A stretch of 64,000 nucleotides of DNA, from positions 908 through 64,907 of the forward strand of contig JBGPMS010000001.1 in NCBI GenBank assembly GCA_041487115.1, in the 5' to 3' direction. The stretch is from Gammaproteobacteria bacterium (lineage in GTDB: Bacteria > Pseudomonadota > Gammaproteobacteria > Burkholderiales > SHXO01). A program made the position numbers and the translations under genes. Below are positions 5,511 through 60,391 of this stretch, piece by piece (positions within the stretch are counted from its first letter, which is position 1; each line of letters opens with the position of its first letter). The notes below the pieces were generated by a model that saw nothing but the letters and a program-made list of their open reading frames with translations, ran no database searches and was not told the DNA's origin.

Positions 5511-8500
5511 ATGCCTCTGCGCTTAGCCTTTCATCTGTTCAAGCACGGCTCGCTGTGGGTCTACCGACTGTCGACCTTCGCGGTGCTGGCGGCGGGGGTG
5601 TTGTTTGCCTCCATGGTGCTGCTGCTGCGCTACTGGGTGTTGCCCCATATCGACGACTACCGGCCGAATATCGTCGCCGGATTGACACGGGCGGCGCACC
5701 AGCGCATTGAGATCGGCCGCATCGAAGGGGAGTGGGACGGCTACCGGCCGCGGCTCATCCTGCGCGACGTGCGCTTGCTCGACGAGCGAGGACAGGAGCG
5801 GTTGAAGCTCGAGGAGGTCGACAGCACGCTCGCGTGGCTGTCGCTGTTTGCCGGGGAGCTGCGCTTCTACTCCATCGAGCTGGAACAGCTCAGCCTGGAG
5901 ATCCGCATCGACACCGGCGGTAACCTCTTGGTAGCGGGCATACCGGTCGGGCAGTCCGGCGGCGAGCGGGGGTTGGGCGACTGGCTGCTGGAGCAGCACC
6001 GCATCGTCGTGCGCGACTCGGAGCTGATCTGGGTCGACGAGAGGCTGGGCGGCACGCCGCTGGAGCTGGAGGATGTGGAAGTGCTGGTCGAGCAGCGCTT
6101 CTGGACCCATCGCTTCGGCCTGCGCGCCAAGCCGCCGCTCGAGGTCGCCTCGCCGATCGACTTCCGCGGCGACCTGCACGGCCGCAGCTTCAGCAACCTT
6201 TCCGGCTGGGCTGGCCGCCTCTACCTCGGCATCGGATACGCCAACCTGGCGGCACTCCGGCCCTGGTTCAAGCTGCCGATGCACACGACGGAGGGTTCGG
6301 GCAGTCTGCAGATCTGGGGCACATTGCAGCGTGGGCAGCCGGGCGAAATCACCGCCGACGTGGGGCTGGCCAACGTGCACGCGCGCCTGCGCGAGGACTT
6401 GCCCGAGCTTGAGCTGTCCCACCTGCGGGGCCGCCTCGGCTGGCGTTCGGATCCGACCGGCATATCCATATGGGCGCGGGGCTTGAGTTTCACGACGCCG
6501 GACGGCGTGGACCTCCCGCCGGCGGACATCAGCTACTCGCGTACGCTGCCCGGCGCCAGCCGCCCGCTCGAATCCGAGGTTGCCTTCGACGCCGTCGAGC
6601 TCGACGCGCTGACGCGCCTGATCGACCGCCTTCCACTGGATGCCGCGCTGCGCACCCGCCTGGCCGAGGTCAACCCGCGCGGGCAGTTGCGGGATTTCCA
6701 TCTTCACTGGCGCGACAGCTTCAGCTGGAGTGGCCCTTACGATGTACGCGGGCGGTTCGAGGACGTCGCGGTCAGCCCCACCGGCTCCTTGCCGGGCATC
6801 TCTCACGTTACTGGCCGCCTTGACGGCAGCGAACGCGGCGGGTCGATCCTCCTGAACGCGGCGGCCACGGAGCTGGTCATGCCGTCGGTGTTCGTCGGGA
6901 CGCTTCCGCTGGACCGGCTCGAAGCCAGGGCGTCCTGGACCGTTTCCGGCGGCGTGCCGAACATCGCGCTCGAGCGCGTGGCCGTGTCCAACAAAGATAT
7001 CGCTGGCGAGGTATCCGGCCGCTACCAAGTGGTGCCCGGCGGTCCCGGCATCATCGATGTGAAGGGGAAGTTCGGGCAGGTCACCGGCCAGGGTGCCTGG
7101 CGCTATATCCCACTGATGGTCGCGGAGCCAGTGCGCCAGTGGTTGCGGCGCGCGATCGTATCGGTCTCCGCCAGCGATGTGCAGGTCACGCTGCGCGGCG
7201 ACCTCCGCAACTTTCCTTGGGGGCGCACCGGCGACGGCCTGTTTGAGGTGTCGGGTGCAGTCCAGGACGGAACGCTGGCCTACCATACGAGCTGGCCCAG
7301 GGTGGAAGGTCTGCAGGGCCGCATCGCGCTCCGGGGCAGCCGGCTAGAGGTCACCGCCAACGCCGGAAGCGTCTTCGGAACCAGGCTGTCGGGCGTCACT
7401 GCCCTGATCCCGGACCTCGGCTCGTCCGACCCGCTGCTGGAGGTGCACGGTGAGGCCGAGGGTCCGACCAGCGACTTCCTGCGCTTCGTACAGGAGAGCC
7501 CGGTGCAGGAGCGGGTCGGCGACCTTACCGACGGAATGCGCGCCAGCGGCCGCGGCCGTCTGAGCCTGCGCATCGACATCCCGCTGCACAGGACCGTGGA
7601 CGGGCAGGTGACGGGCACCTACGTCTTCGCCGACAACACCCTTGATGCGGGCGAGGGTCTGCCGGTGCTGGAACAACTGTCGGGCCGGCTGGTGTTCACC
7701 CAGGACGATGCCAGCCTGCGCGACGGCGCCGCCCGCGTCTACGGGGTGCCCGCCCGGTTTACCGTTGCGCGGGAGGGCTCGGGTTCGGTCCGCATCAAAG
7801 CCATGGGACAGGTCGAAGCGGCGCAGCTGCGGCGTGAGATCAACCAGCCATGGCTCGCGCACTTGACTGGCTCCACTGACTGGCAATTTGCCGCCTCCCT
7901 GGGCGGGCGGCGCCACGACTTCGTGATCGAATCCAACCTGGTGGGCATCGCCTCCTCGTTGCCTACCCCTTTTGCCAAGACCGCGAAGGAGCGGGTCGCG
8001 CTGCGCATCGAGCGGCGGGAGCGCACGCGGGCGAACGACCTCGTCACCATCGCGTACGGCGACCATCTGTCTGCCCAACTGGTGGTGGACAAGGCCGGTA
8101 AGGCGAGGATCAGCCGCGGCGAGATCGTGTTGGGGGGCACCGCACCAGCGCCTCAACGCGACGGGATCTGGATTGCCGGTGCGCTGGAACGCGTCGATCT
8201 GGACCAGTGGCAGGATCTGCTGTCGCAACCGGGCACCGGGGCAGGCGAAGGCAACGCCGGGCTCGCTGGGATCGACCTGTCGGTGTCCCTGGTGCGGGCG
8301 TTCTCCCGGGACTTTCACGACGTGAGGTTCGACGCCACCCGTAGCGAGAGCGCTTGGTCGGCGAAGCTCGACAGCCGCGAGATTACGGGAGACCTGAAAT
8401 GGCTGCCGGAGGGGGACGGGTTGCTCGTCGGCCGCTTCGGCCGCCTGGAACTGCCGCCTTCCACCGCCGAAGTGGAGCCCGAACCGGTGAACGCCCAGCC

Positions 8501-9347: not shown

Positions 9348-10306
9348 CACTGCCAAAGGCAGACTCGATGAAGAAGGCATCCGGCAAGACCAGAGTTCCT
9401 CCGACCGCCCGCTCCGGGTTCGGACGGGCGCGCCCGCGCTCGAGCGAGGCACAGGCCGAAGGCAAGAGCGAGCCGCCGACGGAGAACCAGGCGGCACCGG
9501 TCTTCCGCATCGCGGGCATACAGATGGCCTCCGGCCCCAATGTCTCGGCCAATCTCAACGAAGCCAGGCGACTCATCGAGATGGCGGTAGAGCAGGGCGC
9601 CAGGCTGATCGCGCTGCCCGAATGGTTCGCGTGCATGGGTTTGAAGGACACGGACAAGGTGGCCCTGCGCGAGAAGGACGGTGACGGCCCGATCCAGAAG
9701 TTCCTGTCCGACATGGCGCGCCGCCAGAAAATCTGGTTGATCGGCTGCTCGGTCCCGCTCCAGGCGCCGGAGCCCAACCGCGTACACAACAGCATGCTGG
9801 TATACGACGACCACGGCAAACAGGTTGCACGCTACGACAAGATCCACCTGTTCAGCCTGGATCTGGGGCAGGAGCGATTCTCCGAGGAGCGCACCATCTA
9901 CCCGGGCAAGGACGTGAAGGTGGTAGACACACCGTTCGGGCGCGTGGGGCTGTCGGTGTGTTACGACCTGCGCTTCCCCGAGCTGTACCGGGCCATGAAA
10001 GCGGTGGACGTGATCGTGGTGCCGTCTGCTTTCACCGAAACGACCGGGCGCGCGCACTGGGAGGCGCTGATCCGGGCGCGCGCCATCGAAAACCTGGCCT
10101 ACGTCCTGGCCCCGGCCCAGGGCGGGTATCATCTGAGCGGGCGCGAGACCCACGGACACAGCATGATCGTGGACCCCTGGGGTGTGGTGCTCGATCGCCT
10201 GCCGCGCGGCTCCGGCATAGTGATCGCGGGGATCAACCCCACTTACCAGGCGCATCTGCGCGAGAGCCTGCCGGCGCTGAAGCACCGTACGATACACAGG
10301 ATCTAG
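9344..10306 (+). CDS. carbon-nitrogen hydrolase family protein (nitrilase/omega-amidase-like)
   Basis: FRIAGIQMASG...LIALPEWF...GLSVCYDLRFPELYR show the catalytic E/K/C context. The ATG at 9344 overlaps the yhdP TGA (ATGA). The first ~50 aa are a low-complexity extension, so the start is uncertain. The rest of track ORF 8354..10306 is out-of-frame overlap with yhdP. Confidence 0.8.
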   Translation: MTLPKADSMKKASGKTRVPPTARSGFGRARPRSSEAQAEGKSEPPTENQAAPVFRIAGIQMASGPNVSANLNEARRLIEMAVEQGARLIALPEWFACMGLKDTDKVALREKDGDGPIQKFLSDMARRQKIWLIGCSVPLQAPEPNRVHNSMLVYDDHGKQVARYDKIHLFSLDLGQERFSEERTIYPGKDVKVVDTPFGRVGLSVCYDLRFPELYRAMKAVDVIVVPSAFTETTGRAHWEALIRARAIENLAYVLAPAQGGYHLSGRETHGHSMIVDPWGVVLDRLPRGSGIVIAGINPTYQAHLRESLPALKHRTIHRI

Positions 10307-10337
10307 GGGTGAGGGATTAGGGGCGAGGGGCGAGGGA
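10304..10337 (+). repeat. G-rich degenerate heptamer cluster (left arm of an inverted repeat pair)
   Basis: TAGGGGTGAGGGATTAGGGGCGAGGGGCGAGGGA: five G3-4 tracts. AGGGGCGAGGGGCGAGGG is the exact complement of units in the right-hand array. Confidence 0.85.
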
Positions 10338-10443
10338 TCGCTGTCGGGTATTTACCTCAACTGGTTGAATCTGGAAGTGGTTACCCGCACGTAAGAATCT
10401 CGCGCAGATAACGAGCTCCCATGGCTGTTAGACCGTCAATCCA

Positions 10444-10513
10444 TCGCCCCTCGCCCCTCGCCCCTCGCCCCTCGCCCCTAGCCCCTAGCCCCTAGCCCCT
10501 AGCCCCTAGCCCC
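10444..10513 (+). repeat. perfect 7-bp tandem array: 5 x TCGCCCC followed by 5 x TAGCCCC
   Basis: Counted base by base. The array ends 7 nt before the tldD ATG. The minus strand reads (GGGGCTA)5(GGGGCGA)5. Confidence 0.95.
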
Positions 10514-10520
10514 TCTACAC

Positions 10521-11978
10521 ATGAACGCACCCTCGAACACTGAATTCCTCTTCGCCACCGCCGATCGGACCTTGCTGGCACCCTATGGCCTCGATGCCGG
10601 CGGGCTCACCCAGGTGTTTGGCCGCATCATGGCGCACCAGGTCGACGCCGCCGACCTGTACTTCCAGTACAGCCGCAGCGAGAGTTGGAGCCTGGAGGAA
10701 GGCATCGTCAAGTCGGGCAGTTTCAACATCGACCAGGGCGTGGGAGTGCGCGCCGTGAGCGGGGAGAAGACCGCCTTCGCCTACTCCGACGACATCAGCT
10801 TGCCGGCCTTGCGCGCGGCGGCCGAAGCCACGCGCGCGATCGCGCGGCAAGGCGGTGATGTGCGCGCTCAGGTCGCGCGGCGAAATGAGGGCCGCAGCCT
10901 GTACCTGCCCGAGGATCCGCTGGGGAGCCTGGAAGACCCGAGGAAAGTCGCGCTGCTGGAGACGATCGAGCGCTACGCCCGCGCACGTGACCCGCGCGTG
11001 AAGCAGGTGATCGCCAGCCTGGCGGGAGAGTATGAGGTCATGCTGGTGGCGCGCTCGGACGGCGTAATGGCGGCCGACGTGCGCCCGCTGGTGCGGCTGT
11101 CCTTGCAGGTCATCGCCGAAGAGAACGGGCGCCGCGAGCAGGGCTCCGCTGGTGGCGGCGGACGTTTCGACTACGACTATTTCACCGATGAGATGGTGCA
11201 GAGCTACGCGGAGAAGGCGGTCGAGCAGGCCATCGTCAACCTCAGCGCCCGGCCGGCGCCGGCCGGCACCATGACCGTGGTGCTCGGCCCGGGCTGGCCC
11301 GGTGTCCTGCTGCACGAAGCGATCGGACATGGCCTGGAGGGGGACTTCAATCGCAAGGGAAGCTCCGCCTTCACCGGCCGCATTGGCGAGCGTGTGGCGG
11401 CGCCGGGCGTGACCGTCGTGGACGACGGCACCCTGCACCGGCGGCGCGGGTCGTTGAACATCGACGACGAGGGCAACCCGACGCAGCGCACCGTGCTGAT
11501 CGAAGACGGCGTGCTCAAGGCATACATGCAGGACGCGCTCAACGCGCGGCTGATGGGCGTACCGGTCACTGGCAATGGCCGGCGCGAGTCCTTCGCTCAC
11601 GTGCCCATGCCGCGCATGACCAACACCTACATGCTGGCCGGCGACAAGGATCCAGAGGAGATCATCGCCTCGGTCCAGCGTGGCCTCTACGCCAAGAACT
11701 TCGGCGGCGGGCAGGTGGACATCGTGAGCGGCAAGTTCGTGTTCTCCGCGTCGGAAGCGTACATGATCGAGGACGGCAAGATCACCTATCCGGTCAAGGG
11801 CGCCACGCTCATCGGGAATGGCCCCGACGCGCTCACCCGCGTGAGCATGATCGGCAACGACCTGGCGCTCGATCCCGGCGTGGGCACCTGCGGCAAGGAA
11901 GGGCAGAGCGTGCCGGTGGGAGTGGGCCAGCCCACGCTGCGCATCGATGCGCTCACCGTGGGCGGCACCGCCTCCTAG
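10521..11978 (+). CDS. tldD: metalloprotease TldD
   Basis: 485 aa with the [16 protein letters not shown] zinc motif and overall TldD/PmbA family features. Confidence 0.9.
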
Positions 11979-33342: not shown

Positions 33343-34679
33343 GCGTCCGGGCCGGACTGAAACCGCTGCCGGTGCTCATCGTCGAGGACGACCCGGCGTT
33401 GCGCGAGGCCCTGGAGGACACGCTGCACCTGGCAGGCTACAACGTGATGCAGGCGATCGACGGTGAGTCGGCACTGGCGTTGCTGGAGAAGAACCGGGTC
33501 GGCATCGTCGTCACCGACGTGCAGATGCAGCCCATGGACGGAGAGAAGCTGCTGCGCGAGATCAAGCGCCGGCACCCGGCGCTGCCGGTTCTGCTGATGA
33601 CCGCCTATGGCGAGATCGACCGTGCGGTGGAGGCGATGCGCGCCGGCGCGTGCAACTACCTGGCAAAGCCGTTCGAGCCCGACGAGCTGGTGTCGGAGGT
33701 GGCGCGCTGGATGCTGCCCGCCGGGCTGGGGGATGAAGGCGAGCTGATTGCCGAGGACCCCGCCACGCACGAGGTGCTCGATCTCGCGCGCCGCGTTGCC
33801 GCTACCGACGCCACTGTGCTCCTGACGGGAGAGAGCGGAGTGGGCAAGGAAGTGTTCGCGCGCTTCATCCATCGCCACTCGGCCCGGGCAGACAAGCCGT
33901 TCGTCGCAATCAACTGTGCGGCCATTCCGGACAATCTGCTGGAGGCCACGCTGTTCGGTTACGAGAAGGGCTCGTTCACCGGTGCGCAGCAGGCCCACGC
34001 CGGCAAGTTCGAGCAGGCCGAGGGCGGCACCCTGCTGCTGGACGAAGTGTCCGAGATGCCGCTGCAGCTGCAAGCCAAGCTGCTGCGCGTGTTGCAGGAA
34101 CGCGAGGTGGAGCGGGTAGGCGGCAAGAAGCCGATACCGCTCGACCTGCGCGTTCTCGCGACTTCTAACCGCGACCTGGAGGGGGAGGTGAGGGCCGGCC
34201 GCTTCCGCGAGGACCTGTACTATCGCCTCAACGTATTCCCATTGCAGATCCCGCCACTGCGCGGGCGCCGCGCCGATGTCCTCCCGCTCGCCAACCGGCT
34301 GCTGCGGAAGGGTTCGGAGGCCGCGCAGGGCAAGGCGTTCAGCCTCTCGAGCGCGGCCGCCGCTGGTTTGACGGCCCATACCTGGCGGGGTAACATCCGG
34401 GAGCTGGAGAACGTGCTGCAGCGCGCGATGATTCTGGCGCCAGGTGCGGTGATCGAGTTCGAGCATCTGTGCCTGCCCAAGCTGGCAGCCCCGAGCGACG
34501 CGGGGCAGGTAGTAGCGGCAGAGCGCTCGGCGGAGTTGCCGACAGATCTTAGGTCGCGTGAGCGCGCCCACATTCTGGAGACGCTTGCTGCAGTCAACGG
34601 GGTGCGTAAGGCGGCGGCGGAACGGCTGGGGATGAGCGAGCGGACGCTCCGCTACAAGCTGCAGCAATACCGGCAGTAG
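33339..34679 (+). CDS. sigma-54-dependent response regulator, FleR/NtrC family
   Basis: REC domain (LIVEDD...[11 protein letters not shown]), AAA+ domain ([20 protein letters not shown]-type [18 protein letters not shown]), C-terminal Fis-type HTH. The ATG overlaps the kinase stop (ATGA). Confidence 0.88.
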
Positions 34680-40508: not shown

Positions 40509-41750
40509 ATGGCTTCGCTTCCCTCTGTGCCGTCTACACTCGTTCCTGCTGCCGCGAGCCAGGCTCGCAGCGTTGGGCCGAATGACCGCAGCGTCACGTC
40601 CAACGATCGCAGCGCAGCGCCGAGTGACCGCAGCGTAGCGCCTAGCGATCGCAGCGTCGCATCGAGCAATCGCAACGTCGCCCCGAATGACGGCAGCACG
40701 GCGCCCAATGCCTCCGGCGTAGCGCCGGTCGAGAGCGGGGCTGCACCGCATCAGGCGGACGGATCCGCCTCCTTCGAATCCGTGCTGGAAGCCCAGCTCG
40801 GTCTGCCCTCCGGGGCGAAGCTCGCGCCCCTTGTGCAGGGCACGGACGGAGCGTCCCCGACCGGCGGGTCTCGAACGAAGGAACATGAGACGAAGCAGGT
40901 CGCCACCGCGGAGCCTGCTGCGGCATTCTGGCTTCTTCCTGCCAATATGCTCGTGCCTCCCGCGTCCAACGCGGTCCCATCTGCCGGGGATGCGGTCCTG
41001 GCGGCACACGATGGCCGGCAAGACGGCGGCAGGGCGTTGCCGCCGGTGCCGGGTGCATTTGCCGCTGCGGCCGACCCAGTCGCCTCCCAGGCCGGTGCCG
41101 AGGCTGCCAATGATCCGGCCGGGAAACTCGCGGCCCCGGCAAACTTTGCCGCCACTCTGCAAGGCTTGCCGGCGACCGAGGCAGAGGATAAGCATGCCAC
41201 CGAACCAGCGACCCTCAGCTCGAGCGCGGCGCCCGATCCAGGTTCGCCCGTCCCGCCGCTACCGGTTGGGGAGCGCCGGTTGGAGGGGACGCAGGGGTCG
41301 CCGCAGCCGGCCAATACGATTCCGGGTGTGGTTGGAGAGCCGCACTGGGGTGACGCCTTCTCGCAACGCGTGGTTTGGATGGTCGGGCAGCAGGTGCATT
41401 CGGCGCAGTTTCGTGTCGAGCCTCCGCAGCTCGGTCCGATCGAGGTGAAACTGTCGATCACCAACGACCAGGCCACGCTGACCTTCGCTGCTCCCCACGC
41501 AGCCGCGCGCGAAGCGATCCAGATGTCGCTCCCACGTCTGCAAGAGATGCTGCTGGAGAGCGGCGTTACGCTGGGCAACGTCTTCGTGGGCGCACACACG
41601 CCGCAGAACCGACGCGACGCTGGCGCGGATGGCGGCGGCGCGGCGGGTACAAGGGGCGGCGCCGCCGGAGTAGCCGACTCTGAGTCGATCAGCATCGATT
41701 CGTCGGTGCAGGTGCGTCGCACGCTCGGGCTCGTCGATCTCTACGCGTAG
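40509..41750 (+). CDS. fliK: flagellar hook-length control protein FliK
   Basis: C-terminal Flg_hook domain (SAQFRVEPPQLGPIEVKLSITNDQATLTFAAPHAAAREAIQMSLPRLQEML) and an Ala/Pro-rich N-terminal ruler. ATG at 40509 chosen. Confidence 0.85.
   Translation: MASLPSVPSTLVPAAASQARSVGPNDRSVTSNDRSAAPSDRSVAPSDRSVASSNRNVAPNDGSTAPNASGVAPVESGAAPHQADGSASFESVLEAQLGLPSGAKLAPLVQGTDGASPTGGSRTKEHETKQVATAEPAAAFWLLPANMLVPPASNAVPSAGDAVLAAHDGRQDGGRALPPVPGAFAAAADPVASQAGAEAANDPAGKLAAPANFAATLQGLPATEAEDKHATEPATLSSSAAPDPGSPVPPLPVGERRLEGTQGSPQPANTIPGVVGEPHWGDAFSQRVVWMVGQQVHSAQFRVEPPQLGPIEVKLSITNDQATLTFAAPHAAAREAIQMSLPRLQEMLLESGVTLGNVFVGAHTPQNRRDAGADGGGAAGTRGGAAGVADSESISIDSSVQVRRTLGLVDLYA
40581..40727 (+). repeat. seven imperfect in-frame 21-bp tandem units inside fliK
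   Basis: Units encode NDRSVTS/NDRSAAP/SDRSVAP/SDRSVAS/SNRNVAP/NDGSTAP/NASGVAP. Read directly from the DNA. Confidence 0.85.
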
Positions 41751-50069: not shown

Positions 50070-50261
50070 TTACTTCTTTTGCTCCGCCGGTGCAGCAGCG
50101 GGGGCAGGCGAAGCGGCAGTGCCGGAAGCTGCCTCCGGAGCGGGCGCGGGAGCCGGTGCTGCCGCGGGAGCGGGCGGGGGAGCGGGAGCAGGTTCTTCTT
50201 TCTTGCTGCAAGCGGTCAGACCGATTGCCAGGATGGCGGCAATGACCAGGGCGTGTCTCAT
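50070..50261 (-). CDS. small Ala/Pro-rich lipoprotein
   Basis: 63 aa. Lipobox AILAIGLTAC followed by a low-complexity (AP)n tail. Could still be spurious. Confidence 0.5.
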   Translation of the reverse strand: MRHALVIAAILAIGLTACSKKEEPAPAPPPAPAAAPAPAPAPEAASGTAASPAPAAAPAEQKK

Positions 50262-53206: not shown

Positions 53207-54016
53207 CTAACCTCCCCGCTTGCCCGTCAGGATATGGATCAGAGGCTCGTACGCCTCCTCGCGCGAGAAGCGCCAGCTCGCCAGCGCCACCGCGACCAGT
53301 GTGAACCCGGCGGTCACCAGGAAATCCAGACCTACCTGCAACTCGGATGCTGAGACTGCTGCCAATGATCCGAGCAGGGCGTGCTTGAGCAGGTCAACGG
53401 CGTAGGTGAAGGGGTTGAGCATGGCGGCGACTTTCAGTGCCACCGGCAGGTTCTCGATCGGGTACAGCGCGCCACTGAGAAAGAATACCGGGAATATCAC
53501 GAAGTTCATGATGGCGGCGAAGTTGTCCAGCGTGCGGGTGAACGCGGCCACCAGGATGCCGATCCCCGCGCAGGCCAGCGACGTCATCAGGATGCCGGCG
53601 AGCAGCAGCGGGTAGTTCATCTGTAAGTTGAGAAAGTCGAGCACCGCGAGTAGCACGACGAGCAGCGCCGCCTGCACGATGCCGGCCAGCGTCGCGGCGA
53701 CGGTCTTGGCCACGATGATCCAGTGGTGGGCGAAGGGCGCGATGATCAGCATGCGCATCACGCCCGACTCTTTGTCGTAGACCATCGTCAGCGCCGCCAG
53801 CATGGCACCGAACAGGATGGTCATGCCGACCACGCCGGGGACGAGGAACTGCTGGTAGTCCACACCGCGCGCGCGCCCGACTACCGTGCCGAACCCGGCG
53901 CCGATCACGAACAGCCAGATGAGCGGGCGCACCATGGCGGAGACGAGGCGCGTGCGCTGGCGGAACATTTTCACCAGTTCGCGTTCGAGGACTGCATAGA
54001 TGGGTCGGACGATCAC
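53207..54016 (-). CDS. ABC-2 type transporter permease
   Basis: 269 aa with about 6 TM segments, overlapping the ATPase gene by 4 nt. Confidence 0.8.
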   Translation of the reverse strand: MIVRPIYAVLERELVKMFRQRTRLVSAMVRPLIWLFVIGAGFGTVVGRARGVDYQQFLVPGVVGMTILFGAMLAALTMVYDKESGVMRMLIIAPFAHHWIIVAKTVAATLAGIVQAALLVVLLAVLDFLNLQMNYPLLLAGILMTSLACAGIGILVAAFTRTLDNFAAIMNFVIFPVFFLSGALYPIENLPVALKVAAMLNPFTYAVDLLKHALLGSLAAVSASELQVGLDFLVTAGFTLVAVALASWRFSREEAYEPLIHILTGKRGG

Positions 54017-54951
54017 GATGGTGAGGCGTTGACCCAGAGAAAAACGTCGTTGAGATTGGGCCGCCGGATGCGCAGCGCGGACACGCGGCTGCCCAGTTCG
54101 CCTTGCAGCGTGGCCATAGCGCTGATGTCCTCCTCGACGTGGCGAAACATGGCCGTGTCACCATCTCTTAGCGCGGGCCCGAGCCGCGGCTCGAGTGCGG
54201 GGACCAGGGTATCCAGGTCGGGTGCCTCCAGCTCGATGATATGCCGTCCGAGCGCATCGACCAGCCCGCGCGGCGTGCCTTGTTGCACGATCTTTCCCGA
54301 CTTGATGAACGCGACGTGGTCGCAGCCGTCGGCTTCTTCCAGATAGTGGGTGGTGAGCAGCACCGTCATGCCGGTGCTGGCGCGCAGCCGCTCGATGAAG
54401 CGCCAAATGCGGCGCCGGTTGGGCAGATCCAGCCCGATGGTGGGCTCGTCCAGAAACAGAATGCGCGGGTGGTGGATGACGCCACGCACGATGTCCAGCG
54501 CGCGCCGCATGCCGCCCGACAGCGCGCCGACCGGGCGGTTGCGCATGTCGTTCAGGCCGAACAACTCCAGCAACTCCCGGGCACGCGACTCGATCACGGC
54601 AGGCGCAAGATCGTAGAGCAGGCCGGCAAACCGCAGGTTTTCCGCGACCGACAGGGTGCGGTCCAGCGCTGATTCCTGGAACACCAGGCCAATCGCCCCA
54701 CGCACGGCCACCGACTCTCGCGTGACATCGTGGCCGGCCACCGTGGCAGAGCCCGTGCTGGGCCGCACCAGGGTGGAAAGCATGTGGATGGTGGTGGTCT
54801 TGCCCGAGCCATTGGGGCCGAGCAAGCCGAAGAATTGGCCGGAAGCGATCTCGAGCTCGAGGCCGTCCACGGCGAGAACCTCGCCGTAGCGCTTGGTCAA
54901 GCCGTGCGTGCGGACCGCTGCTTCGAGTGCGACAGGACGGGTATCGTTCAT
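54013..54951 (-). CDS. ABC transporter ATP-binding protein (DrrA-like)
   Basis: Walker A GPNGSGKTT, signature LSGGMRRAL, Walker B ILFLDEPT. Confidence 0.9.
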   Translation of the reverse strand: MNDTRPVALEAAVRTHGLTKRYGEVLAVDGLELEIASGQFFGLLGPNGSGKTTTIHMLSTLVRPSTGSATVAGHDVTRESVAVRGAIGLVFQESALDRTLSVAENLRFAGLLYDLAPAVIESRARELLELFGLNDMRNRPVGALSGGMRRALDIVRGVIHHPRILFLDEPTIGLDLPNRRRIWRFIERLRASTGMTVLLTTHYLEEADGCDHVAFIKSGKIVQQGTPRGLVDALGRHIIELEAPDLDTLVPALEPRLGPALRDGDTAMFRHVEEDISAMATLQGELGSRVSALRIRRPNLNDVFLWVNASPS

Positions 54952-54963
54952 GCCGCGCCGATT

Positions 54964-55185
54964 CTAGTGTCCTGAGTCATAAGTTCGCCGCCGAAAACCG
55001 CCCAGTTGGCCGCCATGCTGTGTTCCGAAGCCTCGCCGTGGTGCCCGCCACTGCCGAGGCTTCGCGCCTTGCCTGGCGGCCAACTGGACGGTTTTCCAGT
55101 CGGCACTGGGGCTGTTGCAGCCGACGCGCCCAATCGCTCCGGCGGTACCAGAGGTCGCCGACGAACTTACCACTCAGGACACTAG
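54964..55185. mobile_element. 222-bp palindromic MITE with IS630/Tc1-mariner-type CTAG/TA ends
   Basis: About 30-bp imperfect TIRs: CTAGTGTCCTGAGTCATAAGTTCGCCGCCG at the left, and the reverse complement of the right end reads CTAGTGTCCTGAGTGGTAAGTTCGTCGGCG. Both ends lie in CTAG. Internal inverted repeats CCAGTTGGCCGCC/GGCGGCCAACTGG and GAAGCCTCG/CGAGGCTTC. No coding capacity. Confidence 0.75.
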
Positions 55186-55195
55186 CGCACGAGGC

Positions 55196-56377
55196 TCAAC
55201 CGACCGGCGTAGTCTCCGGTTGGCTCTTCTCGCTGAGCTTGCGGGAGTTCTTGTCGTCGCGGAAGACGATGGGGTGCACGGTGACTGGCTGGCCTGTAGT
55301 CTGGGCCTTGGCGGTCACGTCGGTAATCAGGTGGTGCTTGGGCGACAGATCGCAGACCGGGTCGGTGTTGGTCGCATCGCCGGTGAGCATGTAGGCCTGG
55401 CAGCGACAGCCGCCGAAATCCTTGGTTTTTTCCGGGCAGCTGCGGCAGGGCTCCTGCATCCAGTCATCGCCGCGGTAGGCGTTGAAGCCGGGTGACTCGT
55501 GCCAGATCCAGCGGACATCGTGATCGCGCACATTCGGGAACGTGAGTGCCGGCAGCATGCGTGCTTCGTGGCAAGGCAGGGCAAGGCCGTCGGCCGCGAT
55601 GTTGAGAAACACCGAACCCCAGCCGTTCATGCATGCCTTCGGACGCGTAGCGTAGTAGTCCGGCACCACGAAGTAGACCTTGCACTTGTTCCCCATCCGG
55701 GTGCGAAACTGGTTGGTGATCGCCTCCGCGCGCACCAGTTGCTCGCGGCTGGGGAGCAGCTGATCGCGGTTGATCAGCGCCCACGCGTAGTACTGAGTGT
55801 TGGCCAGCTCCAGGTGCTCCACGCCCATCGCTTCGGCCATGTCCAGGATAGCCTGGATGTGGTCGATATTGAGCCGGTGCAGCACCACGTTGAGCACCAT
55901 CGGATATTCGTACTGCTTGATCAGCTTCGCCACCTTCTCCTTCAGCTCGAAGGTGCGCGTGCTGCTGAGGAAATCGTTCAACTCGCGGGTGGAGTCCTGG
56001 AACGAGAGCTGGATCTGGTCCAGGCCGCCTTCCTTGAACGCGGCGATGCGCTTCTCGGTCAGCCCGACGCCGGAGGTGAGCAGGTTGGTGTAGTACCCGA
56101 GCCGATGGGCCTCGGCGACCATCACCTCGACGTCGTCGCGCAGGAGCGGCTCACCGCCCGAGATGCCGAGTTGCACCGCGCCCAGCTCGCGCGCCTCGCG
56201 CAGCACGCGCAGCCAGTCCTCAGTAGACAGTTCCGGCCCGGAGCGGGCGTAATCCACCGGGTTATAGCAGTAGATGCAGTGCAGCGGGCAGCGGAATGTG
56301 ATTTCCGCATTGAGCCAGAGCGGATTGCTTATCTTGCGCTCAGCCGGCTTGTTTGGCACGAATCCAGCCTCGTCCAT
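55196..56377 (-). CDS. pqqE: PQQ biosynthesis radical-SAM enzyme PqqE
   Basis: CPLHCIYCYNP radical-SAM cluster motif and a SPASM-like C-terminus (CRSCPEKTKDFGGCRCQA). Confidence 0.93.
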   Translation of the reverse strand: MDEAGFVPNKPAERKISNPLWLNAEITFRCPLHCIYCYNPVDYARSGPELSTEDWLRVLREARELGAVQLGISGGEPLLRDDVEVMVAEAHRLGYYTNLLTSGVGLTEKRIAAFKEGGLDQIQLSFQDSTRELNDFLSSTRTFELKEKVAKLIKQYEYPMVLNVVLHRLNIDHIQAILDMAEAMGVEHLELANTQYYAWALINRDQLLPSREQLVRAEAITNQFRTRMGNKCKVYFVVPDYYATRPKACMNGWGSVFLNIAADGLALPCHEARMLPALTFPNVRDHDVRWIWHESPGFNAYRGDDWMQEPCRSCPEKTKDFGGCRCQAYMLTGDATNTDPVCDLSPKHHLITDVTAKAQTTGQPVTVHPIVFRDDKNSRKLSEKSQPETTPVG

Positions 56378-58807: not shown

Positions 58808-60391
58808 ATGGCCAGCGTAACCGCCGACAGCGATCCGTTTGCATTTTCCATCGAGACGCCCTGGCACCGCGACGGTGTCATGGTGGTGGCGTTCCTGGTT
58901 TCGCTCCTGGTGCACGCCGTGGCACTCATCTTGTTGCCCGGATTCCGCACACCCGTGCCCGAAGAGAAGGTGTTGACGGTCGAGATGGCGCCACCCATCG
59001 TGGAACCGAAGCGGGCGGTCGAAGAGCCACCCAAAACACAGAAAAAGGCGGCGCGGAAGGCCGAACAGCCGTTTCAGCGCCAGGAGCTACAGCCCCCGCC
59101 GGCGACTGCGCCGATGCCCAAGCCCGAACTCACGAAGCCGGAACCTCGCACGGAGGTACGACCCGAGCCCAGGCAGGAGCCGCGCCTCGAGCCGCGTCCG
59201 GAGATTGCACCGCCGCCGCAACCGCTGGCTCGCCTCGAGCCGCGGCCTGAGCCGCGAGTGGTTCCAGCCCCGCACGTGCGTTCCGAGCCTCGGCCCGAGG
59301 TGAGACCCGAGCCGCGTCCCGAACCAAAAATGGAGCCGCGCCAGGATATTCGGCCTGAGCCGCGCGTCGAACCCCGGTTCGAGCCCCGCCCACAGGTAAC
59401 GCCCGAGCCCAGGCCCGTGCAACGCGCGGAGCCCAGGCCCGAGCCCCTTGCGCGCGTCGACCCACGGCCGGAACCGAAGCGGGAGCCGGTGACCGTGGCG
59501 CGTCCCGAAGCGCGGCCCGAGCCGGTCCCTCTACCGCAGGTACAACCGCCGAAGGTGGAACCACGCGCCGAGTCGCGCCCGACGGTCAAAGCGGAGCCTC
59601 GCGCCGAGCCCACCATCGCCGCGCGTCCCGCGCCCCAGGTAGAGGCCCCGCGTCCCGAGGCGCGGCCTGAGCCGGTCCCCTTACCCAAGGTGGAAGCGCC
59701 GAAGGTGGAACCACGCGCCGAGTCGCGCCCAGCGGTCAAAGCGGAACCTCGCGCCGAGCCCACCATCGCCGCGCGTCCTGCGCCCCAGGTTGAGGCCACG
59801 CGTCCCGAGGCGCGGCCGGTCGCGCCGCCGCCCGAGGCGACCCCTCTGGTGCGTTCGCAGTCCCGTCCCGAGCCGCAGCCTGCGGTTCGCGCGCAGCCGC
59901 AGCCCGAGGTTCGCCCCCAGCCCAAGCCAGAGGTCAAGTACGAGGCGCGCGCAGACTCGCGACCGCCTGCCCCGCTGGCGGCACCCGTGCCCGCCGGGCC
60001 TGTGCGTCCCTCCGCAGCGCCGCCCGGCCAGCCAGGCGCCATCGCCTCGCTGCCCGTGGCGCCGAAGCAGGCCAGCGTGGACGAAAATGCTCTGCTCCGG
60101 CGCTTCGCCGATGAGATCTCGCGCGTGCTGGGCAAGTCGGTGTCCGAGCGGGACTATCCACGGCTCGCGCGGCAGAAGGGGTGGCAAGGGACGGCCGAGG
60201 TTCGCCTGCAGATCGGCACGGACGGCAAAGTCAAAAATGTTCTGGTCGGTCGCAGCAGCGGGTACGAGTTGCTCGATCAGCGCGCGCTCGAGCTCGTCAA
60301 ACAGATTCGCCTGCCCAAGGTGCCCTCTGCGTTTCGCGCGCGGGAGTTTTCCGTCACCGTTCCCATCACCTTCGCGCTCAGGAATTCCTGA
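58808..60391 (+). CDS. TonB-family energy transducer with an unusually long Pro-rich spacer
   Basis: N-terminal TM (VMVVAFLVSLLVHAVALILL), more than 300 aa of (E/K)PRPEP-type repeats, and a C-terminal TonB_C domain (YPRLARQKGWQGTAEVRLQIGTDGKVKNVLVGRSSGYELLDQRALELV). Confidence 0.8.
   Translation: MASVTADSDPFAFSIETPWHRDGVMVVAFLVSLLVHAVALILLPGFRTPVPEEKVLTVEMAPPIVEPKRAVEEPPKTQKKAARKAEQPFQRQELQPPPATAPMPKPELTKPEPRTEVRPEPRQEPRLEPRPEIAPPPQPLARLEPRPEPRVVPAPHVRSEPRPEVRPEPRPEPKMEPRQDIRPEPRVEPRFEPRPQVTPEPRPVQRAEPRPEPLARVDPRPEPKREPVTVARPEARPEPVPLPQVQPPKVEPRAESRPTVKAEPRAEPTIAARPAPQVEAPRPEARPEPVPLPKVEAPKVEPRAESRPAVKAEPRAEPTIAARPAPQVEATRPEARPVAPPPEATPLVRSQSRPEPQPAVRAQPQPEVRPQPKPEVKYEARADSRPPAPLAAPVPAGPVRPSAAPPGQPGAIASLPVAPKQASVDENALLRRFADEISRVLGKSVSERDYPRLARQKGWQGTAEVRLQIGTDGKVKNVLVGRSSGYELLDQRALELVKQIRLPKVPSAFRAREFSVTVPITFALRNS
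59501..59817 (+). repeat. 150-bp in-frame tandem duplication (two full copies plus the start of a third) inside the TonB spacer
   Basis: Copies start at CGTCCCGA(A/G)GCGCGGCC at 59501, 59651 and 59801. They encode RPEARPEPVPLP.V..PKVEPRAESRP.VKAEPRAEPTIAARPAPQVEA. with only a few substitutions. Confidence 0.9.

Follow-up and report, generated by a model that had tools for sequence, protein, structure and literature searches.

The region between a carbon-nitrogen hydrolase gene and tldD in an uncultured Burkholderiales lineage is bracketed by two inverted arrays of a 7-nt unit, and this element is a further example of the published class of G-rich intergenic heptamer repeats (PMC4692102), not a new kind. 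Comparison of relatives shows that its arrays gain and lose whole 7-nt units quickly. The interpretation that we favour, and regard as probable, is that of a convergent heptamer SSR pair (unit GGGGC(G/T)A, T(C/A)GCCCC on the + strand), driven by slippage, which would form an intercistronic hairpin that tunes the expression of the hydrolase gene and tldD.

Arrangement of the locus

Coordinates refer to the window, by which we mean the whole 64-kb stretch of DNA that was analysed. The features of the locus, all on the + strand, are as follows.

9371-10306, +, CN_hydrolase (carbon-nitrogen hydrolase) gene; Pfam PF00795, E = 2e-54; stop codon TAG at 10304-10306
10303-10337, +, left G-rich arm, five degenerate inverted heptamer units: CTAGGGG TGAGGGA TTAGGGG CGAGGGG CGAGGGA
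10338-10443, +, spacer of lower GC content, homologous by alignment to the spacers of relatives L121, L204-L206 and L208
10364-10392, +, candidate sigma-32-like promoter motif, GTTGAAT-N14-CCGCACGT, agreeing with 10 of 14 consensus positions
10444-10478, +, right arm, spacer-proximal block of 5 x TCGCCCC, perfect; direct reading and Tandem Repeats Finder
10479-10513, +, right arm, ATG-proximal block of 5 x TAGCCCC, perfect, each junction making CTAG
10448-10481, +, 3' strand of the predicted long-range stem, from RNA and DNA folding
10486-10520, +, surplus C-rich, G-poor units and TCTACAC, essentially unpaired in the RNA fold, between the stem and the start codon
10521-11978, +, tldD (metalloprotease TldD, 485 aa); Pfam PF01523, PF19290 and PF19289

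The original prediction, made from the letters of this DNA, described an array of 5 x TCGCCCC plus 5 x TAGCCCC that stops 7 nt before the tldD ATG; direct reading and Tandem Repeats Finder (10444-10515, period 7, 10.3 copies, 96% matches) confirm this array at 10444-10513. The inverted G-rich cluster placed just after the hydrolase stop is equally real, and begins inside that stop codon, whose TAG lies within the first unit of the left arm. The two arrays occupy both edges of the intergenic region, with a promoter-like native part between them. Their complementarity reaches 85% over 39 nt and includes a perfect 18-mer (AGGGGCGAGGGGCGAGGG / CCCTCGCCCCTCGCCCCT), and the pair is the longest inverted repeat of the window. 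Repeat 14-mers gave 10-11 matches in the window against 0.35-2.7 expected, and these counts exclude a chance origin of the repeat array. Every match lies at the tldD locus except one, at 33872, which carries two mismatches; the same search found no second copy of the arrays in the window.

The sequence TCTACAC fills the 7-nt gap between the right array and the ATG at 10521. Within 25 nt upstream of this ATG there is no GGAG, GAGG, AGGA or GGA, in agreement with the earlier remark that no Shine-Dalgarno sequence is visible. The ATG at 10521 is supported as the start of tldD by the length of the close TldD homologues, nearly all of which have 485 aa; these are named Burkholderiales MAG proteins with up to 94% identity. 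An exact look-up of the TldD sequence of the window found no match on record. A hydrolase orthologue stands at the same position in relatives.

As had been observed, the spacer is less GC-rich than its surroundings (0.48-0.53 versus 0.65-0.70 in the flanks). The 220 nt considered here contain six of the 47 CTAG sites of the window, where the under-representation of CTAG is about 4-fold overall. The creation of CTAG at the unit junctions had been connected to IS630, of which it is the target; the junction sites are there, but nothing ties them to an insertion sequence in this locus, and no insertion sequence or transposase was found near the locus.

Several other candidates were rejected. The array is not protein-coding, as TAGCCCC gives TAG in every frame, and CTAG does likewise on the opposite strand. 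A 12-nt perfect inverted repeat between the 3' end of the hydrolase gene (10254-10265) and the spacer (10398-10409) is conserved in none of five orthologues and is therefore left outside the feature. A possible target-site duplication, TACACA (10292-10297 and 10516-10521), is absent in relatives L121 and L204 and was treated as chance. The plant microRNA precursor MIR1858 was matched below threshold on both strands (32 bits against a gathering score of 137), as is typical of any long hairpin; at gathering score, Rfam recognized nothing except a tRNA at 320-392. A scan of 10100-10700 for sigma-70 promoters and intrinsic terminators returned no sites. Among 2.9 million viral contigs there were only 13 matches, with no sign of a phage link, and literal repeat dimers (for example CCCCTAGCCCCTAG) had no match in the literature.

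Variation of the arrays and of the junction among relatives

Slipped-strand variation in copy number, which had been proposed from the repeat structure, is borne out by the relatives, in which unit number ranges from 2 to 11. The clearest case is provided by L204 and L205, which have identical TldD proteins and 300 of 300 upstream bases in common, yet carry 5 and 6 units. The window has 10 units (5+5), as does L121, while L126 has 11 and L206 has 2; the array of L208 is degenerate, and the contig of L207 breaks inside its array. The TCG and TAG units differ by a point variant that has propagated blockwise, the outcome that slipped-strand mispairing would be expected to produce.

The junction itself differs greatly between lineages. 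Its length among relatives varies between -4 and 339 nt; in many of them the genes overlap by 4 nt (ATGA) or the spacer is unstructured, and among the longer spacers, 33 of 43 have z > -3. Other relatives carry heptamer hairpins that are not G-rich (GATGAGT, GTGATTC), 9-11-mers, REP-like palindromes (L137, L138, L140 and L151), or nothing. The heptamer pair persists at the junction in L125 and L126, the TldD proteins of which are only 82-84% identical. Given the two units of L206 and the many relatives with overlapping genes or unstructured spacers, the structure is dispensable for tldD expression.

Within the spacer, TTGAAT is invariant in all seven aligned orthologues. The pattern TTGAAT-N14-CC(C/G) is kept even in L126, where the spacer has otherwise diverged, and it matches a promoter-like motif of array-free orthologues. 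This sigma-32-like class of motif is enriched upstream of tldD orthologues, with scores of at least 11/14 in 20% of them versus 1.8% of shuffles, so that the motif at 10364-10392 stands as a candidate sigma-32-like promoter. Because the motif is conserved in L126 and common to array-free orthologues, the spacer looks like native intergenic sequence. The suggestion of a small mobile or structured-RNA element is not supported: array-free orthologues share the spacer motif, no Rfam family was recognized, and there is no conserved target-site duplication.

Membership in a published class of heptamer repeats

Rehm et al. (2015, PMC4692102) described GGGAATC and GGGGA(C/T)T repeats in Xanthomonas and Nostoc that obey the same rules of position and pairing as the present arrays, Xanthomonas having 70-75 convergent pairs; the repeats of Nostoc coincide in part with the STRR heptamers of cyanobacteria, originally described from Calothrix (cited in PMC4692102). 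That class consists of tandem 7-nt intergenic units with a G3-G4 tract in at least two copies, and here the right array has 10 perfect units and the left arm 5 degenerate ones. Its G-rich strand lies antisense at most 50 bp from a start, or sense at most 50 bp after a stop; both positions occur at this intergenic locus, where the right array has its G tracts antisense before the ATG and the left arm has them sense over the stop. Convergent inverted pairs able to form stem-loops are frequent in the class, and the pair described here has a predicted stem of ~31 bp (z = -4.3). The class also shows unit numbers that differ among related genomes at one locus, which here are 2, 5, 6, 10, 10 and 11, and no tie to surface or virulence genes. 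The original prediction missed this membership.

The locus departs from the published description in its unit, GGGGC(T/G)A, with CTAG at each junction, which makes it a sister unit and not the published motif. It differs further in its host, an uncultured Burkholderiales lineage, in the single site seen within 64 kb of genome and in having no preference for four units. We found GGGGC(T/G)A in many phyla, a spread that was outside the scope of Rehm et al.: our survey of the heptamer yielded at least 120 loci, often at several sites per genome. Among 78 independent loci, and for any gene orientation, the C-rich array lies within 50 nt of the 3' neighbouring ORF in 40 loci and of the 5' neighbour in 18, a bias of about 2-fold that rests on rough ORF calls. 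Where inverted partners occur in other genomes, the G-rich arm always precedes the C-rich arm (19:0, p = 4e-6).

A predicted hairpin that spans the intergenic region

The long-range stem between the arms that had been proposed is supported by both RNA and DNA folding. The predicted stem of ~31 bp joins 10448-10465 with 10319-10336 (18 bp) and 10469-10481 with 10303-10315 (13 bp), the segment at 10469-10481 spanning the junction of the TCG and TAG blocks. The RNA fold has a minimum free energy of -101.1 kcal/mol (z = -4.30), which none of 200 shuffles equalled, and the DNA fold gives z = -4.61.

For read-through RNA from the hydrolase gene, folding thus predicts that the arms pair into a stem enclosing the whole intergenic region, and the surplus C-rich units would remain single-stranded outside it, leaving the start codon in an open, G-free leader. 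The computed accessibility of the start site in the read-through transcript is 0.75, versus 0.43 +/- 0.07 for random genomic fillers, and exceeds that of all 30 fillers. For a shorter transcript from the candidate spacer promoter it is 0.60 versus 0.55 +/- 0.08, a value predicted to be unchanged by the array. If the sigma-32-like motif is the main tldD promoter, most tldD mRNA would lack the G-rich arm, which would confine the hairpin to DNA or to read-through RNA.

The Haemophilus hmw heptamer hairpin and REP elements suggest by analogy that the most likely role of the stem is that of an intercistronic double-stranded RNA. As such, it would be a plausible site for RNase III or a barrier to exonucleases, so that the hydrolase and tldD mRNAs would have separate fates. 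Changes in unit number may adjust the length of the leader and the accessibility of the start site by degrees, not as an on/off switch, and the effect on fitness may be small. Some co-variation of the arms is visible: the window has TCG-type units on the spacer side of both arms, whereas L126, L204 and L205 are TAG-dominant in both. It is partial, as the left arm of L121 keeps a TCG-type unit opposite an all-TAG right arm, and is hence suggestive of selection for pairing but not proof of it.

Comparison with other repeat systems

The closest tested analogue is the hmw1A/hmw2A system of Haemophilus influenzae (PMC12721329), in which an (ATCTTTC)n tract in the 5'-UTR forms, against a G-rich arm, a hairpin that RNase III cleaves, and in which expression falls as units are added; a G-to-A change that kept the hairpin also kept the phenotypes, which are explained by the hairpin and not by a G4. 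In both systems a heptamer SSR just upstream of a gene provides one arm of a long hairpin, predicted in our case, the other arm is G-rich and G4-capable, and unit number varies in populations. The order of the arms is reversed, however: the hmw SSR is the 5' arm and its G-rich partner is no repeat array, whereas here both arms are arrays and the G-rich one is 5'. The hmw system needs at least 11 units, a minimum being maintained that always leaves the hairpin complete, while here no minimum is kept (2 units in L206, a degenerate array in L208). The hmw genes encode a phase-variable adhesin, in contrast to the housekeeping protease TldD, and the promoter-like motif inside the loop is peculiar to the present locus.

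The TAACTGA repeats of Beggiatoaceae, cyanobacteria and Bacteroidetes, whose arrays sit just ahead of start codons in the place of a ribosome-binding site (MacGregor 2015, PMC4679880), resemble our arrays in that close strains differ by indels in 7-nt steps and that the downstream genes have no functional theme. Their unit, however, is A/T-rich and lacks G4 potential, their arrays are almost never paired in inverted orientation (one indirect repeat in 170 sets), and their proposed action is the binding of a post-transcriptional regulator. With REP, BIME and REPIN elements (Bertels and Rainey 2011, PMC3116915), the locus shares an extragenic inverted doublet with a spacer, a predicted hairpin in single-stranded DNA or mRNA, and a position at an operon junction. 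Its arms are tandem 7-mers without internal palindromy, whereas REP sequences are imperfect palindromes of 20-40 nt, headed by GTAG and present in many near-identical copies; there is no known RAYT link and no other copy in the window, the spacer is locus-specific, and length changes by whole units. A MITE is equally ill-fitting, for the inverted ends are present but there is no conserved duplication and the core looks native and promoter-like. Hypermutability is all that the locus has in common with classical phase-variation loci, which were considered and rejected. In such loci an SSR within the reading frame or between the -35 and -10 elements switches a surface or virulence gene on and off; here the array lies past the candidate promoter and does not enter the ORF, TAG stands in all three of its frames, and the gene is tldD.

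Alternative explanations

The arrays could be a neutral by-product of replication, to which 7-nt units are especially prone to contribute by slippage: heptamers would expand wherever an intergenic region tolerates them, the partner would be copied by template switching, and expression would be unaffected. The junction is indeed highly permissive, with lengths from -4 to 339 nt and lineage-specific contents, the 2-11 units reveal no visible constraint, and for their repeats Rehm et al. saw no connection with gene function and were unable to demonstrate regulation (PMC4692102). We nevertheless consider this explanation somewhat doubtful, since the strict 19:0 order and the bias toward gene ends would hardly arise unless selection or a directional mechanism were at work, the pair has persisted at the locus in L125 and L126, and the predicted openness of the start exceeds that of every random filler. 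A G-quadruplex switch, in which the G-rich strand folds and blocks or pauses RNA polymerase or ribosomes at tldD or the hydrolase gene, would find its sites in the ten tracts of the template DNA of the tldD leader and in the five tracts of the RNA or non-template DNA after the hydrolase stop. The canonical motifs claimed for both strands do exist in silico, but the ten-tract strand is the template of tldD, so that sense RNA carries only the five-tract left arm. G4Hunter, which had been recommended as a check, scores the right array at -2.21, the strongest value in the window, and the left arm at +1.89; of the four canonical G4 motifs of the window, three are at this locus, one of them in the left arm at 10306-10330. 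Moreover, the related (GGGGACT)4 and (GGGGATT)4 form very stable G4s in vitro, with T1/2 above 74-95 C (PMC4692102), and the position rules would suit structures that are tolerated after stops and avoided before starts in mRNA. As relatives have hairpins of GATGAGT or GTGATTC, which lack G4 potential, or no repeat or no spacer at all at the same junction, it is not G4 potential that is conserved; the counts of 2, 5, 6, 10 and 11 show no preference for four units, the complementary arm competes for the G tracts, and the hmw phenotypes survived the G-to-A change with the hairpin kept (PMC12721329). A G4 switch therefore seems improbable to us.

Much the same low likelihood attaches to a miniature mobile element of the MITE or REPIN kind, in which the arrays would be terminal inverted repeats of a ~210-bp unit inserted between formerly adjacent genes. 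It would account for a pair that brackets the entire intergenic region when some relatives have overlapping genes; L015 and L057 share their arms and a ~70-nt spacer at 80% identity within unrelated flanks, the arrays of one Lentisphaeria MAG are embedded in a larger repeat dispersed over many loci, and REP-like palindromes occupy the same junction in other lineages. Apart from L015/L057 and that MAG, however, nearly all spacers are unique across the at least 120 loci, and the spacer motif, conserved in L126 and matched in array-free orthologues, is native-looking. A conserved target-site duplication, arms with GTAG-headed REP palindromes and a second copy within the window are all lacking. 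A further explanation is coupling or attenuation, in which the stem brings the hydrolase stop near the tldD start for re-initiation, or the C-rich tract loads Rho and makes tldD transcription dependent on translation, the G-then-C order keeping that tract hidden until its partner has been made. The ATGA overlaps of many relatives imply ancestral translational coupling, tldD has no Shine-Dalgarno sequence, and the stem has the hydrolase stop at its 5' base and is followed, 38 nt beyond its 3' base, by the ATG; the G-then-C polarity is also strand-symmetric, so that, however the genes are arranged, starts are preceded by C-rich RNA and stops are followed by G-rich RNA. We rate this explanation as very improbable: it is purely inferential, the literature examined gave no bacterial precedent for re-initiation across a hairpin bridge, coupling would be superfluous given the putative internal promoter, and the position bias is only ~2-fold with rough ORF calls.

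Significance of the locus

Taken alone, the locus is one more intergenic heptamer repeat before a housekeeping protease gene of an uncultured Burkholderiales bacterium. Its wider value is that it adds a new unit, GGGGC(T/G)A, which is common to many phyla, to the published G-rich heptamer class. That the order is strictly G-then-C (19:0), and that different heptamer hairpins recur at a single orthologous junction, are simple, testable regularities that existing papers leave unexplained. At the far end of what we would entertain, and with little expectation of its being right, is the idea that two-array heptamer hairpins, purine/G-rich and then pyrimidine/C-rich, may form a general, unnamed class of operon-junction element across phyla that recolonizes permissive junctions, at least four different units having appeared in orthologous hydrolase-tldD spacers. 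Complementarity would then be maintained by arm-to-arm copying or by RNA-dependent repeat change of the type reported for hmw, polarity would derive from translation initiation or Rho, and some pairs (L015/L057) may move as units by unknown machinery.

Arrays of 2, 5, 6, 10 and 11 units on near-identical backgrounds, together with array-free orthologues, constitute a clean natural series with which experiments could separate the hairpin, G4 and neutral readings. For annotation, the locus carries a warning: such arrays break assemblies, as in L207, and can conceal start codons with no Shine-Dalgarno sequence.

Results and discussion

An inverted pair of heptamer arrays at an operon junction
Two hypermutable heptamer arrays, inverted relative to each other, sit at the two edges of the junction between the hydrolase gene and tldD.

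9371-10306: carbon-nitrogen hydrolase gene, 5' of the element (Pfam)
10303-10337: left G-rich arm, five degenerate inverted units (CTAGGGG, TGAGGGA, TTAGGGG, CGAGGGG, CGAGGGA)
10444-10478: right array, block 1, five perfect TCGCCCC units (direct reading, Tandem Repeats Finder)
10479-10513: right array, block 2, five perfect TAGCCCC units (direct reading, Tandem Repeats Finder)
10521-11978: tldD, 3' of the element (Pfam)

The arrays are as originally predicted, with five plus five perfect units, a G-rich partner and no Shine-Dalgarno sequence: GGAG, GAGG, AGGA and GGA are all absent from the 25 nt upstream of the tldD ATG, which is separated from the last TAGCCCC unit by TCTACAC. Close TldD homologues are nearly all 485 aa long, which makes 10521 the likely position of the start codon. 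At the opposite edge, the first left-arm unit includes the hydrolase stop codon TAG (10304-10306); YhdP is a more distant upstream neighbour of the locus. The arm pair is the longest inverted repeat of the 64-kb window, where the heptamer count at the locus is far above chance expectation, and the spacer is indeed less GC-rich (0.48-0.53) than its flanks (0.65-0.70). CTAG, to which the original prediction had drawn attention, is approximately 4.4-fold under-represented in the window (47 observed, approximately 207 expected from base composition), with an unusual local concentration of 6 of the 47 sites inside the element. A perfect 12-nt inverted repeat (ATCTGCGCGAGA / TCTCGCGCAGAT) joins the hydrolase 3' end (10254-10265) to the spacer (10398-10409); it is probably fortuitous, since it is not kept in the five orthologues checked.

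Gain and loss of units
Our set of hydrolase-tldD junctions comes from 88 related contigs. Named homologues place the source lineage among uncultured Burkholderiales. Gene order is kept, while intergenic length ranges from -4 (an ATGA overlap) to 339 nt, so that the 214-nt region of the window is both derived and dispensable. Close relatives, whose TldD is 91-94% identical, have the spacer and arrays in common and differ in unit number. Two contigs, L204 and L205, encode identical TldD proteins and agree at 300/300 upstream bases, yet have five and six units, respectively; others have two (L206), ten, all TAG-type (L121) and eleven (L126, TldD 84%). The L207 contig begins within the array, and the arrays of L208 and L125 are decayed. 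These differences are direct evidence that whole 7-nt units are gained and lost at the locus. The proposed comparison of strains thus yields 2 to 11 units among relatives, and slipped-strand copy-number variation is borne out. The 5 + 5 blocks of the window show the spread of one point variant along the array. Unit types of the two arms agree in part: in the window both arms have TCG-type units next to the spacer, and in L126, L204 and L205 both are TAG-type, with L121 departing from this matching.

Other contents of the junction
In other relatives the junction holds hairpins of different repeats, namely GATGAGT/CATCACC (L128), GTGATTC/GAATCAC-type (L122, L123) and 9- to 11-mers (L156, L170, L137), or REP-like palindromes (L137, L138, L140, L151; fold z -5 to -11.5), and some junctions hold neither. 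Given these varied contents, and given that the fold z-score is below -3 for 10 of the 43 spacers that are 75 nt or longer, a stable hairpin is common at the junction but not required.

The short tandem repeats of L128, L122, L123, L152, L156, L170, L137 and L158 include GATGAGT, GTGATTC, CAGGATTAA and ACGAATGAACA. Each hairpin built from such repeats has its purine-rich arm 5' and its pyrimidine-rich arm 3'; L158 has a one-sided GTGACCG array only, directly past the stop. The long REP-like palindromes have a GTAGG head (for example CGTAGGTTGGGCAAAGCG... and TGTAGGGCGCAGCTTCAGCGCGCC).

A candidate promoter in the spacer
The E. coli sigma-32 consensus is CTTGAAA-N13-14-CCCCATnT. Using a two-block score out of 14 modelled on it, motifs of at least 11/14 were found upstream of tldD in 20% of orthologues (1.8% of shuffles) and of at least 12/14 in 9.5% (0% of shuffles). 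Array-free relatives have a -10-like box 7-37 nt before the tldD ATG; in L136, L160, L172 and L174, CTAGAAT-N14-CCCCAT(C/T)T is followed by 7-9 nt and the ATG, which suggests a near-leaderless mRNA. CTAGAAT-N14-CCCCATCT, or a near match to this sigma-32-like motif, lies approximately 30 nt before the ATG in these four and in L183, L198 and L199. In several of these array-free relatives it ends just 7-9 nt before the ATG, suggesting for this lineage a promoter of heat-shock type and a tldD mRNA that is nearly leaderless. The counterpart in the window, GTTGAAT-N14-CCGCACGT at 10364-10392, is 128 nt from the ATG and scores 10/14, weak taken alone; its TTGAAT is invariant across the alignment of seven orthologues, including L126, though the rest of the L126 spacer has diverged. 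We infer that the spacer is the junction's original intergenic sequence, promoter included, and that the C-rich array grew within the tldD leader. The G-rich arm lies between the hydrolase stop and the candidate promoter.

Predicted structure and its possible role
The long-range stem proposed between the arms is recovered by prediction as approximately 31 bp, in both RNA (10295-10530, -101.1 kcal/mol, z = -4.30) and DNA (z = -4.61). Helix 1 (18 bp) pairs 10319-10336 with 10448-10465, and helix 2 (13 bp including one G-U) pairs 10303-10315 with 10469-10481, taking in the TCG/TAG block junction, which is unique in the array. With five units in the left arm against ten in the right, approximately four TAGCCCC units plus 7 nt would remain unpaired between stem and ATG. 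In read-through RNA, the predicted stem would enclose the intergenic region, and the leader ahead of the start codon, which has no Shine-Dalgarno sequence, would be single-stranded and free of G. A partition-function calculation on the native read-through RNA gives an unpaired fraction of 0.75 for the start region (-15 to +12), compared with 0.43 +/- 0.07 (maximum 0.56) for 30 random 70-nt genomic fillers; changing unit number shifts this fraction across 0.53-0.75. By analogy, changes in unit number would adjust expression by degrees, and the stem, as intercistronic double-stranded RNA, could be cut by RNase III or could block exonucleases.

The main rival to such a role holds that slippage produced the pair as a tolerated by-product without function. 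The filler comparison favours a role, while in a transcript from the putative internal promoter the array leaves the calculated openness of the start region unchanged (0.60 against 0.55 +/- 0.08). Control by G-quadruplexes (G4) is less well supported. The element holds the strongest G4Hunter score in the window (right array, -2.21; left arm, +1.89) and three of the window's four canonical G4 motifs, so that the in silico potential stands; the ten-tract G-rich strand, however, is the template strand of tldD, and the sense RNA has just the five-tract left arm, for which the hairpin competes. Nor is G4 potential a common property of the junction, because relatives have other repeats, palindromes or nothing there. 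Coupling or Rho models are likewise less well supported, as is mobile-element insertion.

A wider family of arrays
No further heptamer occurrence was found in the 64-kb window. In other genomes, a search of one genome from each species for runs of four T(A/C)GCCCC units located arrays at no fewer than 120 loci, often several per genome. Hosts among the matches listed include cyanobacteria, Planctomycetota, Lentisphaeria, Acidobacteriota, Chloroflexota, Gemmatimonadota, Actinomycetota, Firmicutes, Parcubacteria and many Proteobacteria; viral contigs gave 13 matches only. When arrays were read with the C-rich strand on top, 19/101 testable ones had inverted G-rich units on the 5' side and 0/101 on the 3' side (p = 4e-6, matches listed), and this order belongs to the pair and not to the strand read, since reverse complementation leaves it unchanged. 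Two regularities are of most value here: the strictness of the G-then-C order, and the repeated appearance of different heptamer hairpins at a single orthologous junction. Among the matches listed, and by rough ORF calls, 40 loci have no more than 50 nt between the C-rich array and the 3' neighbour, compared with 18 for the 5' neighbour, independently of neighbour orientation.

Spacers were unique among the matches listed, save in one Lentisphaeria MAG, where the arrays form part of a larger dispersed repeat, and in L015 and L057, two gammaproteobacterial MAGs (one Thiohalomonas denitrificans). The latter have in common the arms and a spacer of approximately 70 nt at approximately 80% identity, the complete unit being G-arm, spacer AGGAGTGCGCTGCGCGCA...AGTACATTCC and C-array (L015, 7190-7338; L057, approximately 6975-7109, reverse strand). 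Because their flanking genes are unrelated, some such units may be dispersed or mobile.

In the Lentisphaeria MAG, JBMNFR01, variant units of AAGCCCC type are interspersed through the TCGCCCC arrays. The larger repeat, mostly from this MAG, recurs at many loci (L003, L005, L020, L034, L052, L061, L091, L092, L094, L120) with 80-97% identity and looks like a complex satellite or mobile element family.

Comparison with known systems
The element is a member of a published class, the G-rich heptamer repeats, with a new unit sequence. Those of Xanthomonas (GGGAATC) and Nostoc (GGGGA(C/T)T) are intergenic, often form convergent pairs (70-75 cases), differ in unit number among related genomes and form G4 in vitro, with no regulatory role demonstrated in that study (Rehm et al. 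2015, PMC4692102). The window element follows each of their positional rules and differs only in unit sequence. It does not represent a new kind of system or a regulator specific to tldD. TAACTGA heptamers also adjoin start codons, taking the place of the ribosome-binding site, and show 7-nt indels between strains (MacGregor 2015, PMC4679880). In the Haemophilus hmw 5'-UTR, (ATCTTTC)n pairs with a G-rich arm in a long hairpin that RNase III cuts; expression and repeat-number change both depend on the hairpin, and a G-to-A change that kept pairing kept the phenotypes (Rapun-Araiz et al. 2025, PMC12721329). Among mobile hairpins, REPINs (PMC3116915) come closest, but they have REP palindromes as arms, unlike the element.

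Other repeats in the window
A nested inverted repeat of approximately 222 nt (54964-55185; outer arms 31 nt, inner arms 26 nt, CTAG at both ends) occupies the entire gap between co-directional minus-strand ORFs (54013-54951 and 55196-56377). Its RNA fold is -135.5 kcal/mol (z = -9.4) with no match in Rfam; candidates for its nature are a structured RNA and a MITE-like element. Three tandem repeats lie in long open frames and probably encode repeat-containing proteins.

40565-40697: 21-nt unit x 6.3, 63-nt super-period
50137-50189: GGAGCG x 8.8
59499-59817: 150-nt unit x 2.1
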